A stretch of 64,000 nucleotides of DNA from Escherichia phage Ec_Makalu_002, in sequence record MN709127.1. One strand, written 5' to 3'. Position numbers and translations under genes: made by a program. The notes under the pieces were generated by a model. The model had not been told where the DNA came from. It worked only from the letters and a program-made list of their open reading frames with translations, and did not search any database. Positions 25,537 through 32,272 of this stretch are shown piece by piece (positions within the stretch are counted from its first letter, which is position 1; every line of letters starts with the position of its first letter).

Positions 25537-26562
25537 CTAACTTTTTGCGCTATTTACTTCTGCTAAAAGTTCATCAGAGATACGCTTAACTGCCGCAAGT
25601 TCTTCCGGTTCTAGGTTTTGTTCTTCCAGATATTCATAGACCATCTGAATAGTGCTTTTAACTTCAATAACACCTGTTTCCTGTGATGCGCTACTCTCCA
25701 GCTTATGGACCACTTTTAGCTTGTGTACAACGGCCTCTAACGCGCTTTCTAACTTAGTTAACCCATTATCAGCAACCGTTGCAATAAGACGCACACTAAG
25801 CCCCTTATAGCGTTCTACATCGATTTTATCATCTGACGGGTAAGTGATCCGCACATGATATGTTTTATCATTCTGGATAAACTCTTTTTTGTGTGTATCG
25901 GTATCGAATACCCAAAAACCACGCGGATCATTTTCGTCACCCGCCGTTAGTGTGTATGGTGTACCAATATACGTTACGTTACCTCCATCACTGATAGTAT
26001 GAAAGTGACCGGAAAACACTTCACGGTATTTCTTGAGGAAGTCCGCGCTATAACCTTCGGATTTTAGACCTTTATAGAAATAGTAACCGGATAATTCCCA
26101 ATGGCCTACACAATATTCGCTGAATGAATTTTGAATAAACTCTAAAATCTCTGATTTATTGTCATCACAAAACCACGGGAACAGATCAAACGATACCCCA
26201 TCAAAGGTAACTGTTTCCGGCTTATCGATGACCTTAATGCAATCATACTGGCTTAACACTTCACGCGGTGCGTTAGGCTGGATCTTGTTTCGTTTAAACA
26301 TATCATGATTCCCGACCGTGATATAACAAGTAATTCCAGCCTCTTCCAGTAACGGGATGACCTTAGTACGGTTAAATTTCATGGTTTCATGGGTAATTGC
26401 TTTTCGGCAATCAAACCAATCCCCTGTTTGAATCCATGTCTTAATATTATGCTCTTTGGAGTATTCAACCGCTTTCTTGATCGTGTCTAAAATATACTCA
26501 TGCACCCACGGATCGTCGCCACCGATACCAGTATGCAGGTCACCTAAAAGCAAAATTTTCAT
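25537..26562 (-). CDS. 47: recombination endonuclease subunit gp47 (SbcD/Mre11-like)
   Basis: 341 aa; MKILLLGDLH phosphoesterase motifs. Confidence 0.85.
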   Translation of the reverse strand: MKILLLGDLHTGIGGDDPWVHEYILDTIKKAVEYSKEHNIKTWIQTGDWFDCRKAITHETMKFNRTKVIPLLEEAGITCYITVGNHDMFKRNKIQPNAPREVLSQYDCIKVIDKPETVTFDGVSFDLFPWFCDDNKSEILEFIQNSFSEYCVGHWELSGYYFYKGLKSEGYSADFLKKYREVFSGHFHTISDGGNVTYIGTPYTLTAGDENDPRGFWVFDTDTHKKEFIQNDKTYHVRITYPSDDKIDVERYKGLSVRLIATVADNGLTKLESALEAVVHKLKVVHKLESSASQETGVIEVKSTIQMVYEYLEEQNLEPEELAAVKRISDELLAEVNSAKS

Positions 26563-26652
26563 AGTCTCTTCCTCTCTTAGTTTTCGATGCTCTCACTATA
26601 TCACAGAAAAATAAAAAGGGAAACCCCTTTCGGAGTCTCCCTTATAAAGCCA

Positions 26653-26940
26653 TTACAGCATACTTAATACCGTTTGCCGTGTACTAACCCACATAGCAGA
26701 AAGCAGTTCTGGCGTGTGTGGCTGTTTGTAGATATCACGTAACTTTCCGATAGCGTAGATATACGCATCACGGTTATCATCGATGATAGCCTTTTCAGCC
26801 CACAATTTAAGGCGTTCAATCTCTCGCGCGTTCTTACGCAGGATCTTTTCAGCCTTTTTAGCGGCTTTCGCCTCTAGGTCTGCTTGAACTTTGTCTACTT
26901 CATTCACAGCAATTTGCTCATGGTGTTCATTGTAAGTCAT
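26653..26940 (-). CDS. hypothetical protein
   Basis: 95-aa ORF. Confidence 0.45.
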   Translation of the reverse strand: MTYNEHHEQIAVNEVDKVQADLEAKAAKKAEKILRKNAREIERLKLWAEKAIIDDNRDAYIYAIGKLRDIYKQPHTPELLSAMWVSTRQTVLSML

Positions 26941-26941
26941 A

Positions 26942-27175
26942 TTATTTTCCTTCTGGGATATAGTCGATGATTAAAGAAAATTCATCTTCCGAAACATTAT
27001 AGCTATGTGAGATTGTACCCGTCAAGACCTCAAGATCCGGTGACTTGATATTACACGGATCGATAATCACCGGAACGCCGCAATCTCTCAAAAATAATTT
27101 GGAGAAATACGGCACAAGGTCAGTTTCAAACTCTGCTTCTTCCAGCAAACGGGAAATGTTAATTTTCAATCTCAT
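26942..27175 (-). CDS. hypothetical protein
   Basis: 77-aa ORF. Confidence 0.4.
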
Positions 27176-27692
27176 AAAATTGGTCCAGACTAGGCAATTC
27201 CTCGGTCAATACATCTTCAACCTTTGGCGCTTTCGGTTTATTGACCGATTCCTCGTAGTTGTTGATTTTATCGTAAATATCCTGTATGAATGCCTCATCA
27301 GCAATCTGGCACATATCAGCGTCGCGTTCGTCATATACATGATGCACAAAATATTTGTATTTTGCGGCTGTCGCTGTTCTCTCTTTTTTAATGCGCTGTA
27401 CAAAAGCATTAAAGCACGCTTGCGTGATGTAAGCATGAGGATTTTTATACTTTGTCTCGTCAAAATTAATCAAACCCTTGACCGCCGCTTCGATTCCGTC
27501 GTCGATCATTTCTTCGCGCCATGTTTGACTATAACCAGAAAAGTTAAAACGCCGTGATAGATTTTTAGATATTTGCATAATTGCCAGACCGATTTGATCG
27601 CTCATTGGAACTTGCCGACCTTCTGCTGCAATTCGTTGTTTCCAACGGCAAATTTCTTCGTAAAGCTCTTTATTGTTTACATAATCAGACAC
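27159..27692 (-). CDS. 55: late sigma factor gp55
   Basis: [57 protein letters not shown] nearly identical to T4 gp55; apparent GTG start with SD GAGGGTG. Confidence 0.85.
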
Positions 27693-27711
27693 TTCGCACC
27701 CTCGATATTAT

Positions 27712-29202
27712 TTAGGAAATAACCCTTTCGGGCGATTCCCCATTACCATTATACTTTCTTTGCTTAGTTATCCACACTCTAACCATCTCTACCGATTCAC
27801 CGTCAGACGGGTCAAGAGTTTTTCCTTTTTTCTTCATGCGGTACTTAAATCCGTTAAATCTGGCATTCTCTTGCTCGTTAAAGTCGAACATCTTTTTAAA
27901 TGATTTTCGCCCTTTACGCTCACCACATTCTAGCGGAATCATTCGGTCTGTTATTACATTGGCATTAGGTAGAAACGTTTTTAGATAATCCACCAACGCC
28001 CAATCAGGAACATATAGATTAACACTCTCCTTGCTCTTGTTGTCTCTCAGGTTACAACGCAAACATAATTGAAATGCTGGTTCCAGATAATCAGACACAT
28101 GACGCGCTTTCAAAAACTCATTTGTCGGGAGACCGCAACTATTAGCAAGACCTTTTAAAATATCAATCTCCCATCGTTGAGGGTTAAAGCTGAACATCAC
28201 AGCAACATTTTTATGATGAATGTAAGAGTTAAGACCATAAGATCCGTAAGGTATCCGCTCACCAATACCATTTGTGCACGCTTCACGGTCCCGATTCACG
28301 GTATAAATGAAGTCATCACCGCATTCATTTTTAACCATATCAACAAGACGTTCAAAGGTATTGTTTGTTTCTGACTGGTGACGCGACCAGCGTTCGGAGT
28401 CCGTCATAAGGATGATATTAACTCTATCTGTATTTTTATACTCTTTGAAATATAGTCTGGATTCTAGCGCACTCGGAACAAAATCGCAATTTGCATAGTA
28501 TCGTAGATACTTTCCGCTGTATGTATCAAAGAGATTTGCACATGCTATCGTAACCTTTTTAAAGTCTCCCCACGTACCGTGTTTGTTATCGTTCAAGAAA
28601 ACAATTTTCGACCCATTCTTCCGGTGTCCTTCGTTATGTTTTACCATAACGTTGATTTTCTTCTCTAATAACGCCTCATAAAGCCCTCTAAGCGAAGAAT
28701 CGATCATATCAGTACCATCCTTCGCACTTTCTATCTTTTCTTTGATAGCGGACTTCTCAGAGTCTTTTAGAACTAAGTTCTGTAGACATTCCGATTCGTC
28801 GGCGATTGGTTCGCAATGCTTCGTGATAAGTTCAAGATTAGACTTAAACGGATACTCATTAAATTCAACCAGTTGAGGAACTTCATCAATGTAAAGAGCA
28901 TAATCACCAAACATTTTTGAACGTTCCATATTAGATAACGCTGTATGTGTAATGAATATCACATCAGCGCCGTCTTTAACTGATTGCATTATCGACGCTT
29001 GCACTGTCTTAAGGCTTCTTAGTCTTGTGCTATCAATCAAGACAGCACGACCGCCCATTCTTTTAAACTTATTGTAAGATTGTTCACTTAAAACACGAGA
29101 TGGCGAAGCAATAACCGCTTTTTCTTTTGTCTCTAGGACGTGGGAAAGTATAGCATCAGTTTTCCCCGCCGCTGGCAATGCGATTAATGTTTCAATCTTC
29201 AT
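27712..29202 (-). CDS. P-loop NTPase, SF2-helicase-like N-terminal domain, function unknown
   Basis: 496 aa; Walker A LPAAGKTD, motif Ia-like SPSRVL, Walker B/DExx YIDEVPQ; occupies the T4 alpha-gt slot. Confidence 0.5.
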   Translation of the reverse strand: MKIETLIALPAAGKTDAILSHVLETKEKAVIASPSRVLSEQSYNKFKRMGGRAVLIDSTRLRSLKTVQASIMQSVKDGADVIFITHTALSNMERSKMFGDYALYIDEVPQLVEFNEYPFKSNLELITKHCEPIADESECLQNLVLKDSEKSAIKEKIESAKDGTDMIDSSLRGLYEALLEKKINVMVKHNEGHRKNGSKIVFLNDNKHGTWGDFKKVTIACANLFDTYSGKYLRYYANCDFVPSALESRLYFKEYKNTDRVNIILMTDSERWSRHQSETNNTFERLVDMVKNECGDDFIYTVNRDREACTNGIGERIPYGSYGLNSYIHHKNVAVMFSFNPQRWEIDILKGLANSCGLPTNEFLKARHVSDYLEPAFQLCLRCNLRDNKSKESVNLYVPDWALVDYLKTFLPNANVITDRMIPLECGERKGRKSFKKMFDFNEQENARFNGFKYRMKKKGKTLDPSDGESVEMVRVWITKQRKYNGNGESPERVIS

Positions 29203-29507
29203 TAGAAACCCTTACGTCGTGCTTTCTGGCATTTCTTGATCATCTTATCAGAGATTTCTCGCTTTGGTGCAATCTCTTTCACACCGAAAGCACTAATGCC
29301 AAATTCAGAGAGAATATATTCAACCAACAATTCACGCACACGCGCTTTACCGATATTCACGCCGTTATTTTTCAGATATGTCTGACCTTCTACTTGCATC
29401 AGATCTAAATCTGCATCGGTAATACTGATTTCTTCCATGCGTCCAAATCGAGAGTAAACCATGTGTGCGATTGCATTGTGTACTAACATAATATATTCCT
29501 CGCTCAA
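29202..29507 (-). CDS. hypothetical protein
   Basis: 101-aa ORF. Confidence 0.45.
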   Translation of the reverse strand: MSEEYIMLVHNAIAHMVYSRFGRMEEISITDADLDLMQVEGQTYLKNNGVNIGKARVRELLVEYILSEFGISAFGVKEIAPKREISDKMIKKCQKARRKGF

Positions 29508-29510
29508 GAA

Positions 29511-29669
29511 TTACTTAATGATACTTACTTTACCAGATCCGTGACAATGAGCGCAACACCCATCACCACGCAATCCTGTTCCGTTACAGTGTTTACACTT
29601 CTTCAACGGTAAAGCCATTATAGCAAATAAAGCAATAATGAACACCGAAACTAAATTCTCAATAATCAT
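29511..29669 (-). CDS. small membrane-anchored DnaJ-type zinc-finger protein (52 aa)
   Basis: hydrophobic N-terminus then CKHCNGTG and CAHCHGSG (CxxCxGxG x2); below ORF-track cutoff. Confidence 0.4.
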   Translation of the reverse strand: MIIENLVSVFIIALFAIMALPLKKCKHCNGTGLRGDGCCAHCHGSGKVSIIK

Positions 29670-29928
29670 AAATCGCCCTCAGTTCTTTATAGCCTCCAAT
29701 GTGCTCGTTGTCAATGAATATCTGGGGGTATACAAACCGGAGGCTCTTTGAGTTCAGCCTCCCCGCCAGTTCTTCAATCATATCACGGTCGGGAATAATG
29801 TCAACCCCGACCTGCTTGAATACTGGTTTAAGTGTATACGGAATACCCAGATCATCCAGTAGCTTCATTGCACTAATACAACCATAACAATGATAAGCCT
29901 CTTTCGGTATGCCGTATATCTCGATCAT
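29659..29928 (-). CDS. glutaredoxin-like protein (NrdH/Grx)
   Basis: CYGC active site; 89 aa. Confidence 0.65.
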   Translation of the reverse strand: MIEIYGIPKEAYHCYGCISAMKLLDDLGIPYTLKPVFKQVGVDIIPDRDMIEELAGRLNSKSLRFVYPQIFIDNEHIGGYKELRAIYDY

Positions 29929-30431
29929 TTCTCAGCCTTTAATCTTTCCAGTTCTTCTTCCAGTTCCTTGATGCGCTTCTCGCGTTCAATATCACGTTGG
30001 ATCTTAGTGGCGAATACTCGTTTAAACTGATTATAGTCATCAATTTTAAATACTTCCTCTTCACCATATCGACGTACAGAAACTTCGTAGTTGTTAAAAA
30101 ATTGTTCCAACATTGCATCAGTGGTCAGTTCTGCCGATACCACTTTAAAATGACGTTCTTCTGATTGCAAAAACCAGTTGTGCGCGTACTCCCGTACATC
30201 ATCAACATTGCAGCAGGTGTACACCTTGCCATCAATTTCAATCACAGAAACATAATCCACATCCGATGCATGGTGATCAAATGCAATAACTTTAAATGGA
30301 CGGTCGCCGATAAACTCTGCTATTGCATCATTTGCAACGCTAAAGTTTGCAAAATCTTCTCTCGTTTTCTTATCTTTCCACTGATAGGTCACGCCAGCAA
30401 CAAACATATTACCATCCTCGCTCTTTACCAA
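29925..30431 (-). CDS. paralog-family protein (novel ~90-aa domain + coiled-coil tail)
   Basis: GVTYQWKD..DRPFKVIAFD..IEIDGKVY..W; C-terminal EREKRIKELEEELERLK. Confidence 0.5.
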   Translation of the reverse strand: MVKSEDGNMFVAGVTYQWKDKKTREDFANFSVANDAIAEFIGDRPFKVIAFDHHASDVDYVSVIEIDGKVYTCCNVDDVREYAHNWFLQSEERHFKVVSAELTTDAMLEQFFNNYEVSVRRYGEEEVFKIDDYNQFKRVFATKIQRDIEREKRIKELEEELERLKAEK

Positions 30432-31233
30432 TCAAAAATTCAACTTCACGACGGTTAATGTCTTCTTGAAGGTCTTTAATCTTCTGTCGATCTTGCATGA
30501 TTTCGTCCATCTTGTCAAGTGCTGTGATGAAATCATCGAAACGTTCAAAGGTTTTACCTTCATTTGCTTCGCCAAATTTAACCATTGTTAGGCCATAACG
30601 ACTACTAAACAGACGCTTCAATTGCCCAACGATCTTAGAATCAGTGGTTATAACTTCCAATTCTTCTACTTCTTGAAAGAATTTTCTATCAGAATCAATA
30701 AACCAGCTAGTTCCTTTATGGTCGCTATCTTCGGTTGCACTCATTAGAGTATGGTCTTTACCATCAATTTCAATTACATCAATTTGCCCACATGGACGAA
30801 CATTTTTAACAGTAAAAGGTCTATAATTTATTGCTCGTGCAATAACATAATTAAGATTAGATACGTTTTCAGCATAATGACAGAAGTCGGTCATAGCATT
30901 CGCATCTTTCCAAGTATAAGTTTTACCAACCTCCCATTTCTGGGGAACTTCTTCAACTTCACGAAAGAATTTTCTATCGAATGGACTAAAGAGATATGTT
31001 GCAGTCCAAATGTCTTTTCCTGTAGCAGTTTTCGCCGTATGCTCAACCCCATCGAGTTCTATTACATCAATCCAACCATTATCCTCGATCTCGATGATGG
31101 TAAATGGCTTGTCACCAATAGCTGCACTAATATCGCTGTTAAGTGGAGAAAGAACACCTTCACCGTTAGTAATAAACTCAGTTTTAGCTTTTTCATCTTT
31201 CCAAGTGTAAGTTTTACCAATTTCCCATTTCAT
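30409..31233 (-). CDS. paralog-family protein with two tandem copies of the domain
   Basis: MKWEIGKTYTWKD...DRKFFREVEE then QKWEVGKTYTWKD...DRKFFQEVEE. Confidence 0.5.
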   Translation of the reverse strand: MKWEIGKTYTWKDEKAKTEFITNGEGVLSPLNSDISAAIGDKPFTIIEIEDNGWIDVIELDGVEHTAKTATGKDIWTATYLFSPFDRKFFREVEEVPQKWEVGKTYTWKDANAMTDFCHYAENVSNLNYVIARAINYRPFTVKNVRPCGQIDVIEIDGKDHTLMSATEDSDHKGTSWFIDSDRKFFQEVEELEVITTDSKIVGQLKRLFSSRYGLTMVKFGEANEGKTFERFDDFITALDKMDEIMQDRQKIKDLQEDINRREVEFLIGKERGW

Positions 31234-31245
31234 AATATATTCCCC

Positions 31246-31746
31246 TTAACCGATTTTATCAAGTTCGTTTAATGCTTTCTCTGCTTCCTGTATAGCTTGC
31301 ACTCTTTCCGGCATTTTGTCAAGAAAATCTTTCAACTCTTCAAAACTGGAGATATGACGCAATGCATTAGCACCGATAGCCGCATGTGATTTGCATTCAA
31401 AGCGAATTTTATAATTATCCATCGCCAATTTGAGAAGATCAATTAGATCATGCTCATGACCAGGCAATAAAACTTCTTTGAAGCACGCTCGGTCGCCATC
31501 GGAAAACCATATATTATCACCAACATCGATAGAACTAATATAATCCCCTTCGTGATTATAGATTGAACGTACATTACCCCAACGGTCTACCGTAGCAACA
31601 ATAAATGGTTTATCGAGATATGTAAACATACCATCAATATTAGGTCTTCGTTCGTAACGCCAACAATCACGCAAAATACTCTTTTCGTATTCTCCACCCA
31701 ACTTATAGGTCTTACCTTCTTCCCATTTCATATTATCATCTCTCAT
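31246..31746 (-). CDS. paralog-family protein
   Basis: MKWEEGKTYK...DKPFIVATVD...DRACFKEV; helical tail. Confidence 0.5.
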   Translation of the reverse strand: MRDDNMKWEEGKTYKLGGEYEKSILRDCWRYERRPNIDGMFTYLDKPFIVATVDRWGNVRSIYNHEGDYISSIDVGDNIWFSDGDRACFKEVLLPGHEHDLIDLLKLAMDNYKIRFECKSHAAIGANALRHISSFEELKDFLDKMPERVQAIQEAEKALNELDKIG

Positions 31747-32272
31747 TTTTGATACGTGATTCTAATTGGATCATACGGTCGCGCGTTTGCTTGTATTCGC
31801 GGATAGCACCGATCCGGCTAGGCATACCATCCAGTACGCTCTTAATACCTTCTAGGGTAGTGATTTTAGCAATGCTATTGTGCAATCCTGTCTTATCGAT
31901 CAACTGAATGTCGTAGGCTTCCATAAGCAGACCCAGACGTTCTAAAGTTAGGTCTTCTTCTTTTTCTTCCGATTCTGGAATCTTAGGTTCAATAGTAACT
32001 TCGGTAAAGAAACGACGCTCACCCGACCAAAACCACACACCAGAACAACCAATAGGGGATTCTTTTAACGTCATAGAGTCGAAATTACTACCAATAATAG
32101 TAATTTCTCTAACATCACCATCATCGTCAAGGTCTTCTACCCTAAACGGGCGACCAGCCAACAAGTCAACAATACATCTGTTAATAGACGACGAAAATTT
32201 AGTCAGTTCGGCTTTCGACGCTTCGCATTCAATCTTGTAAGTTTTACCAACTTCCCATTCCATAATAATCAC
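31736..32272 (-). CDS. paralog-family protein
   Basis: MEWEVGKTYK...GRPFRVEDLD...ERRFFTEV; helical tail. Confidence 0.5.
   Translation of the reverse strand: MIIMEWEVGKTYKIECEASKAELTKFSSSINRCIVDLLAGRPFRVEDLDDDGDVREITIIGSNFDSMTLKESPIGCSGVWFWSGERRFFTEVTIEPKIPESEEKEEDLTLERLGLLMEAYDIQLIDKTGLHNSIAKITTLEGIKSVLDGMPSRIGAIREYKQTRDRMIQLESRIKNER

Follow-up and report, generated by a model that had tools for sequence, protein, structure and literature searches.

The window analysed here is a stretch of 64,000 nucleotides (nts) from Escherichia phage Ec_Makalu_002 (sequence record MN709127.1), a Krischvirus of the RB49/Phi1 type. Its minus strand carries, next to gene 55, a gene for a protein of 496 amino acids (aa) that has the features of a superfamily 2 (SF2) helicase and is most likely an accessory replication helicase. 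The open reading frame (ORF) returned by the ORF finder starts with ATG and represents a complete coding sequence (CDS; Table 1). Its product is 99.6 % identical to that of Escherichia phage Ec_Makalu_003 and 98.6 % identical to that of Phi1. The codon differences from Phi1 comprise 24 synonymous versus 6 non-synonymous changes, which argues for a real gene under purifying selection. Codon 490 of Ec_Makalu_002 reads TCG, in contrast to the TAG stop of Phi1 and most relatives, and the read-through adds a short stretch that is specific to this isolate. In the structural model discussed below this stretch is disordered, and residues 488-496 obtain a predicted local distance difference test score (pLDDT) below 50.

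Homologues were found by tblastn in 243 records of a phage collection. They belong to RB49-, RB43-, 44RR- and 65-like phages and to relatives that grow on Proteus, Serratia, Yersinia and Erwinia. The complete 3.3-kb block comprising positions 26653-29928 is kept in all 58 Krischvirus records (58/58), at 96-99.8 % identity. Public annotation mostly speaks of a “hypothetical protein”, the orthologue in phage W115 (L042 1281-2750) being labelled “putative helicase”. The RB49 counterpart, RB49ORF044c, was given a weak Pfam DEAD/DEAH match (E 0.069) by Nolan et al. (2006), and the comparative paper on RB49 and Phi1 does not mention the gene.

The minus strand of T4 reads 46, 46.1, 46.2, 47, 47.1, a-gt (alpha-glucosyltransferase, alpha-gt), mobB, a-gt.2, a-gt.3, a-gt.4, a-gt.5, 55, 55.1, 55.2 and, further on, nrdH, nrdG and nrdD. 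According to the annotation of Phi1 the order there, and hence in the window, is 47, a-gt.4, a-gt.5, 55, ORF044 (the helicase gene), 55.2, a small ORF and nrdH. The 101-aa ORF upstream of the helicase gene is a true homologue of T4 gp55.2 (42 % identity, E 5e-19). Since the gene sits between gene 55 and the 55.2 homologue, it occupies the 55.1 position, where a gene of 496 codons replaces the 87-aa 55.1 of T4.

A preliminary description of the sequence had assigned the gene to the alpha-gt slot of T4 and had linked it to a DNA without glucosylated hydroxymethylcytosine (hmC). The placement is wrong, as a-gt.4 and a-gt.5 flank gene 55 on the side opposite to the 496-aa gene, which thus does not lie between 47.1 and a-gt.2-.5, a place that transcription reaches after gene 55; the link to unglucosylated DNA is unsupported. 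That the protein could be a surrogate for alpha-gt, or be tied in another way to the absence of glucosyl-hmC, has a single point in its favour, namely that the phage lacks alpha-gt, a gene that Petrov et al. (2010, PMC2993671, Table 4) find in T-even-type phages only. The idea is refuted by the 55.1 position, by a fold that is that of a helicase and not of a glycosyltransferase, and by the homologues that Aeromonas phages 31 and 25 carry in the same place, just upstream of gene 55. Both of these phages encode gene 42, the dCMP hydroxymethylase (Petrov et al. 2010, Table 4). The true alpha-gt slot of the window, from gp47 to a-gt.4 (26563-26652), is a gap of about 90 nts, and the small a-gt.4 and a-gt.5 homologues are still retained.

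The upstream neighbour of the helicase gene is the 55.2 homologue in RB49-like and RB43-like phages and a DprA/SLOG-like gene in Aeromonas phage 31. As the partner differs between phage groups, a universal two-gene module, which we had considered, was rejected. The gene of Aeromonas phage 31 (L003 3441-4004) overlaps the helicase start by 4 nts, and its annotation as a DprA-like recombination-mediator protein may point to a role in recombination.

Table 1. Features of the helicase gene and its surroundings, in window coordinates; residue numbers refer to the 496-aa protein
Feature	Position	Strand	Remarks
gp47	25537-26562		
a-gt.4	26653-26940		
a-gt.4 and a-gt.5, joint span	26653-27175		
Gene 55	27159-27692		
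Helicase-like CDS	27712..29202	minus	496 aa; stop codon 27712-27714
C-terminal extension SPERVIS	27715-27735	minus	7 aa, isolate-specific; read-through of codon 490
Basic two-helix C-terminal tail, residues 425-496	27715..27930	minus	specific to T4-like short forms; W477 invariant among the 28 T4-like homologues
RecA2 lobe, residues about 255-420	27943..28440	minus	includes N303, YGLN 322-325 and VxD 398-400
Motif VI FQLCLRCNLR, residues 377-386	28045..28074	minus	arginine fingers; Q378, R382 and R386 invariant in 136 sequences
Motif III-like TIACAN, residues 218-223	28534..28551	minus	RecA1 return strand (216-221 in the model); A222 conserved in at least 90 % of the 136- and 69-sequence alignments
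RecA1 insertion of about 100 aa, residues about 110-215	28558..28875	minus	two long helices and three strands (DSSP of the model)
Walker B / motif II YIDEVP, residues 104-109	28876..28893	minus	D106 and E107 invariant in all alignments
Motif Ib-like FITH, residues 83-86	28945..28956	minus	F83, T85 and H86 invariant among the 28 homologues
Motif Ia-like SPSRVL, residues 33-38	29089..29106	minus	S33 and L38 invariant among the 28 homologues; aligns with the PT..L consensus of the broad family
Walker A / motif I PAAGKT, residues 10-15	29158..29175	minus	P10, G13, K14 and T15 invariant among the 28 homologues; K14 invariant in the 69 sequences
55.2 homologue	29202..29507	minus	stop overlaps the helicase start codon (TAATG)
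Sigma-70-like promoter match TTGTCA-18-TATCAT	29518..29547	minus	upstream of 55.2; consensus match only

An intact and conserved SF2 motor core

Conservation was followed in three alignments, which comprise 28 homologues from T4-like phages (33-74 % identity), 136 sequences (about 20-29 % identity) and 69 sequences, respectively. The SF2 motifs I, Ia, Ib, II, III, IV, V and VI can all be accounted for. Among the T4-like homologues, the conserved stretches are FxTH (83-86), TIACAN (218-223), YxxNxxR (300-306), GxN (323-325), FQLCxRxxxR (377-386) and VxD (398-400). The 136 sequences share D106, E107, G323, N325, Q378, R382 and R386 without exception, and G13, K14 and L38 are conserved in at least 90 % of them; their invariant residues suggest an active NTPase. 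T85 and H86 are conserved in 77-85 % of the distant relatives, and A222, N303 and the G323/N325 pair also belong to the conserved positions. The ORF and the three N-terminal motifs (PAAGKT, SPSRVL and YIDEVP) that had been pointed out in the preliminary description are thus real, as judged from the ORF list, the mapping of residues and their conservation.

An AlphaFold2 model built on the 28-homologue alignment reaches a mean pLDDT of 87.9 and a predicted template modelling score (pTM) of 0.77. It displays the two tandem RecA-like lobes characteristic of SF2 enzymes, the first of which is interrupted by an insertion that is conserved throughout the family, being covered by the hhalign comparison reported below. 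Conserved motifs, the two-lobed model and the structural matches all support the earlier designation as an SF2-helicase-like P-loop protein. The remaining 350 or so residues had been called unrecognised, and it is correct that Pfam sees only the N-terminal lobe, but these C-terminal residues make up the rest of a complete helicase, with the insertion, a RecA2 lobe containing motif VI, and the tail.

Within sequence databases, the Pfam DEAD/DEAH model matches residues 11-130 (E 3.5e-6; 27.3 bits versus a cut-off of 26 bits), and the PHROGs matches are to two families of unknown function, among them PHROG 2467 with an E value of 7.8e-176. NCBIfam has no match to the protein. A broader profile run against the sequences of the PDB recovered only generic matches to the N-lobe (DDX52, reverse gyrase, PriA, Mfd, RecG, NS3). 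An RNA helicase of the DEAD-box or NS3 type, acting on phage mRNA or in translation, is a highly improbable identity for the protein. It has neither a Q motif nor the DEAD and SAT signatures, the DEAD-box and NS3-type matches cover one lobe only, and the relatives are fused to DNA primases and lie in DNA replication modules, as detailed in the next section.

The best overall structural match is to the XPD/Rad3/DinG/CasDinG group of 5'->3' SF2 helicases, with which the window protein shares the two RecA lobes and, judged by topology, an insertion of helices and strands directly after Walker B. Members of the XPD/DinG family have, by definition, two motor domains, of which motor domain 1 carries two insertions, an iron-sulphur (FeS) or pseudo-FeS domain and an Arch domain (PMC11981726). 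In CasDinG, for example, Walker A (138-146) is followed by a vestigial FeS domain (200-263), Walker B (336-342) and the Arch (352-467), which begins about 10 residues after Walker B (PMC10450177). In contrast, the window protein is much smaller with its 496 aa, has Walker A at the extreme N-terminus and lacks an FeS or vestigial FeS domain. Residues 43-103, between motifs Ia and II, contain no more than the usual helices and strands of RecA1. A Cys cluster is absent, and the first Cys is C130, the sole invariant Cys ahead of motif III. The XPD-specific Pfam models DEAD_2 and Helicase_C_2 match neither the window protein nor, at E ≤ 0.1 and among the 25 most-matched families listed, any of the 69 relatives (0/69), for which only the generic DEAD, ResIII and Flavi_DEAD models appear. 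Likewise, no XPD or DinG chain is present among the best 60 matches listed for the profile against PDB sequences.

Because the FeS domain, the Cys cluster and the XPD-specific Pfam matches are all missing, we treat the likeness to XPD and DinG as an architectural resemblance, not as membership. A true member of the group, comparable to the short “sDinG” type, would be a 5'->3' helicase for repair or the damage response whose FeS domain was lost; such an identity is unlikely on these grounds; in addition, the TM-scores are ≤0.5, and the domain to which members of the family are fused is a primase, not a repair module.

Primase-fused relatives on mobile elements

A profile search of 1.84 billion cluster representatives retrieved 1,386 proteins at E ≤ 1e-3, and 818 at E ≤ 1e-10. 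The lengths of the family members cluster at about 480-600 and 750-860 aa. Where a terminal extension of at least 150 aa is present, it is C-terminal in 61 out of 63 proteins, and these extensions form one homology cluster with the motifs LDFDxGD, RFRVxIPT and SGLDxSK and a terminal GNxxFFxLA...QIPSIMxSL module. Structural comparison reveals that the extension folds as an archaeo-eukaryotic primase (AEP) plus a PriCT-like module. The domain order in these long forms (61/63) is consequently helicase, AEP and PriCT-like helical module, a fusion found in mobile elements. The AEP part matches the PrimPol of Cyanophage S-2L (score 9.5), HP0184 (8.9), Prim-PolC (8.8), CAPP Prim-Pol (7.7), the LigD polymerase domain (7.6) and the RepB' primase (7.3), followed by the AEP domain of poxvirus E5 and the small subunits of archaeal and eukaryotic primases. 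Pfam, in comparison, leaves the AEP domain unrecognised, and its only matches in the extensions, limited to some members, are to PriCT_1 (best E 1.4e-4) and PriCT_2 (best E 4.9e-7).

When the T4-like and long-form alignments are compared by hhalign, they align with a probability of 100 % (E 4.9e-49) over residues 1-421 of the window protein, including the insertion; the tail is not shared. Reading by eye had suggested a correspondence between the C-terminal tail and the long-form basic linker, but this is unsupported, the hhalign alignment ending at residue 421.

One relative, P0116, has the reverse order, with an N-terminal region that shows AEP-like motifs by eye (FDFDED, GSGHVYV) and then the helicase. 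Comparison of this extension with the long-form AEP domain by hhalign was not significant, only the DxD region being aligned, and Pfam found nothing, so that its AEP character is suggested by the visually identified motifs alone. The jumbo phage Atu_ph07 encodes a complete long form (helicase, residues 7-438; AEP, 446-760), and the AEP part also matches “putative primase” genes of Pseudomonas phages RSP and KPP23 and a gene of a Streptococcus satellite phage. A “DNA primase” label is attached to the short form in Klebsiella phage phi1_146015 (L041 3001-4428) and in at least one other RB43-like Klebsiella phage; since the short form contains no primase domain, the label was likely over-transferred from the fused relatives.

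Outside phages, long forms frequently reside in islands. In a metagenomic example, a tyrosine integrase (Arm-DNA-bind_3 and Phage_integrase domains) and a small ORF precede an HTH_17 (AlpA-like) gene and the long form, and the cargo behind them comprises, among others, Mrr_cat, PLDc and Metallophos genes. The neighbour of the long form in Bradyrhizobium sp. 172 is an ATP-dependent DNA ligase. A scan of one genome per species yielded 30 alphaproteobacterial long-form loci. A tyrosine integrase lies within 8 kb in at least 13 of the 33 loci analysed, at least 4 of which have an adjacent tRNA gene; these counts are lower bounds because many contigs are short. An adjacent tRNA gene is a hallmark of an integration site. 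As such genes are seen at some loci only, the island context is frequent, not universal. The arrangement recalls P4-like and phage-inducible chromosomal island (PICI)-like elements, which likewise combine an integrase, an AlpA-like helix-turn-helix gene and a replication gene slot in which a primase is joined to a helicase. However, their primase-helicases combine AEP with motors of superfamily 3 (SF3), superfamily 4 (SF4) or the MCM type, whereas the helicase of the long forms belongs to SF2 and is N-terminal to the primase; the window protein itself has no primase domain.

The islands also bring to mind a weapon in conflicts between elements: the phage would have its own copy of the replication helicase of a satellite or island and use it to interfere with these elements or with host defence. 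The nearest non-phage relatives are indeed replication proteins of islands with defence-like cargo (Mrr_cat, PLDc, Metallophos), and the gene lies in a region of T4-like genomes that varies between phages. Nevertheless, we hold this to be decidedly improbable: PADLOC returned nothing meaningful for the protein (a weak match to an unrelated model, E 0.009), and fixation in 58/58 Krischvirus records with synteny across several genera is more like a vertically inherited housekeeping accessory gene than a rapidly evolving gene of conflict.

The family has been foreseen in the literature. Kazlauskas et al. (2018; J Mol Biol 430:737; PMC5862659) described C-terminal domains of the All3500-family AEPs with only remote similarity to SF2 and predicted a novel helicase family specific to viruses and plasmids (pVOG1685/9714). 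Remote SF2 similarity, occurrence in T4-like phages, fusion to AEP and PriCT in mobile elements and a predicted role as replication helicase are common to their family and ours, and the two are very probably the same, which makes the window protein a putative member of pVOG1685. They differ in that the published order has the primase N-terminal and the helicase C-terminal, while 61/63 of the extended relatives found here show the opposite.

The same authors (PMC5862659) tie the sister group pVOG9714 to herpesvirus UL9, which raises the question of a UL9-like initiator that recognises a specific phage replication origin. UL9 is likewise a viral SF2 helicase tied to replication initiation, the Pfam model Herpes_ori_bp weakly matches 5 of the 69 relatives (best E 0.0014), and a basic C-terminal tail is present. 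We judge this quite unlikely, as the window protein has no Herpes_ori_bp match and lacks a C-terminal origin-binding or dimerisation domain, the motor being followed only by a two-helix tail of about 70 aa. Moreover, the nearest structural neighbours of UL9 are DEAD-box proteins (PMC13483431), whereas those of the window protein are XPD and DinG, and no repeat or origin-like element was identified beside the gene.

A proposed accessory helicase of T4-like phages

The analysis establishes an intact, conserved and confidently modelled SF2 ATPase core, homology to primase-fused proteins in the replication slot of islands, and genus-wide fixation. Our preferred reading, to which we assign a probability of roughly 0.6, is that the gene product is an active SF2 motor that works on nucleic acids by itself, most likely a DNA helicase or translocase driven by ATP. 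It would come from a family that is specific to viruses and mobile elements and has an AEP as its ancestral partner. The function had previously been given as unknown; the protein is indeed uncharacterised, but homology to the long forms narrows it to a family of primase-associated DNA helicases.

From the model and the conserved residues, RecA1 (residues 1-109 and 216-250) would bind ATP through K14/T15 and D106/E107, while motif VI of RecA2 (about 255-420) would supply Q378, R382 and R386. The cleft between the lobes, in which SF2 enzymes grip the nucleic-acid backbone, is predicted to be lined by T85-H86, N303 and G323-x-N325. The insertion of about 100 aa may act like an Arch and help strand separation, and the basic tail, specific to the T4-like forms, may bind DNA or a partner protein. 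The substrate would be DNA, which the enzyme would unwind or translocate along. On islands and in Atu_ph07, the motor, fused to an AEP primase-polymerase and a PriCT-like module, would open DNA for priming. T4-like phages carry the motor alone, probably expressed early together with 55.2 and gene 55 and translationally coupled to 55.2. There it might join gp41, Dda and UvsW as a fourth helicase, with an accessory part in initiating or restarting replication or in recombination.

It would be an addition to the known set, not a substitute. The T4 UvsW protein is an SF2 helicase whose structural alignment with the window protein covers one lobe only (126-158 residues). The close relative Phi1 encodes dda and gene 41, and uvsW is part of the gene set shared by T4-like phages (Petrov et al. 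2010, PMC2993671), which argues for an additional helicase and against a replacement of UvsW or of Dda (superfamily 1B).

A number of observations weigh against the preferred reading. Searches of solved structures by sequence, both with the protein and with the T4-like profile, found nothing, and sequence likeness to known helicases is confined to the N-terminal lobe and marginal there, barely above the Pfam cut-off. The resemblance to XPD is moderate (TM 0.45-0.48), and the insertion (residues 110-215) has the position of the Arch and a similar size and composition, an equivalence drawn from topology only. T4-like forms lack a primase domain, and a search of the rest of the 64-kb window for an AEP domain found none; their role may therefore differ by now from the one that the fused forms have. 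As T4 and other T-even-type phages do without the gene, it is not needed for T4-type replication. The evidence for the promoter consists of a consensus match only.

Going one step further, the family could represent a hitherto uncharacterised class of replication helicase, built as an SF2 motor with an XPD-like Arch and no FeS domain. Paired with an AEP primase, this motor would constitute the replicase in many integrative elements and in some jumbo phages. T4-like phages of the RB49, RB43 and Aeromonas types would have retained just the motor, as a fourth helicase associated with the replisome that may open origins or restart forks with gp61 or gp32. We offer this as a tentative proposal with the odds against it. 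To our knowledge, primase-helicase fusions use SF3, SF4 or MCM motors, and for this reason an SF2 enzyme as the primary primase-coupled replicative helicase would, if true, be unusual.

For the window itself the result is modest. It amounts to a recognisable, uncharacterised helicase that has no connection with DNA glucosylation and whose family had already been predicted (Kazlauskas et al. 2018). Nevertheless, the T4 replisome is a textbook case, and much of the T4 family turns out to have a conserved, putative extra helicase. The primase-fused relatives provide a testable hypothesis, an accessory function in replication or recombination, and allow scattered annotations to be corrected. The long forms are candidate replicases of alphaproteobacterial islands, with an AEP domain that is invisible to current Pfam models.

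Expression signals and nearby genes

A Shine-Dalgarno-like sequence (AAGGG) accompanies the overlapping start of the helicase gene. Judged by its sequence, the sigma-70-like match upstream of 55.2 is a candidate early promoter for a transcript comprising 55.2, the helicase gene and gene 55. No T4-type late promoter (TATAAATA) occurs within 19 kb of the gene. The whole 64-kb window contains two exact TATAAATA boxes, at 48433 and 58421 on the minus strand, for a chance expectation of 5.4; this scarcity fits a window of mainly early and DNA-metabolism genes.

The 52-aa ORF at 29511-29669 (minus strand) has a hydrophobic N-terminal segment, and its CKHCNGTG...CAHCHGSG sequence resembles the zinc-finger repeats of the DnaJ type (CxxCxGxG). 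It is kept in Phi1 as ORF046 and labelled “putative membrane protein” in phage W115. Further upstream, four adjacent paralogous ORFs of 168, 274, 166 and 178 aa lie between nrdH and nrdG (29925-32272, minus strand). Pairwise BLASTP E values range from 2e-4 to 5e-15, and the 274-aa member is internally duplicated, and the sequences indicate a gene family that has been amplified in tandem. The sequence MKWExGKTY occurs close to the N-terminus in three of the ORFs, the 168-aa member being more divergent there.

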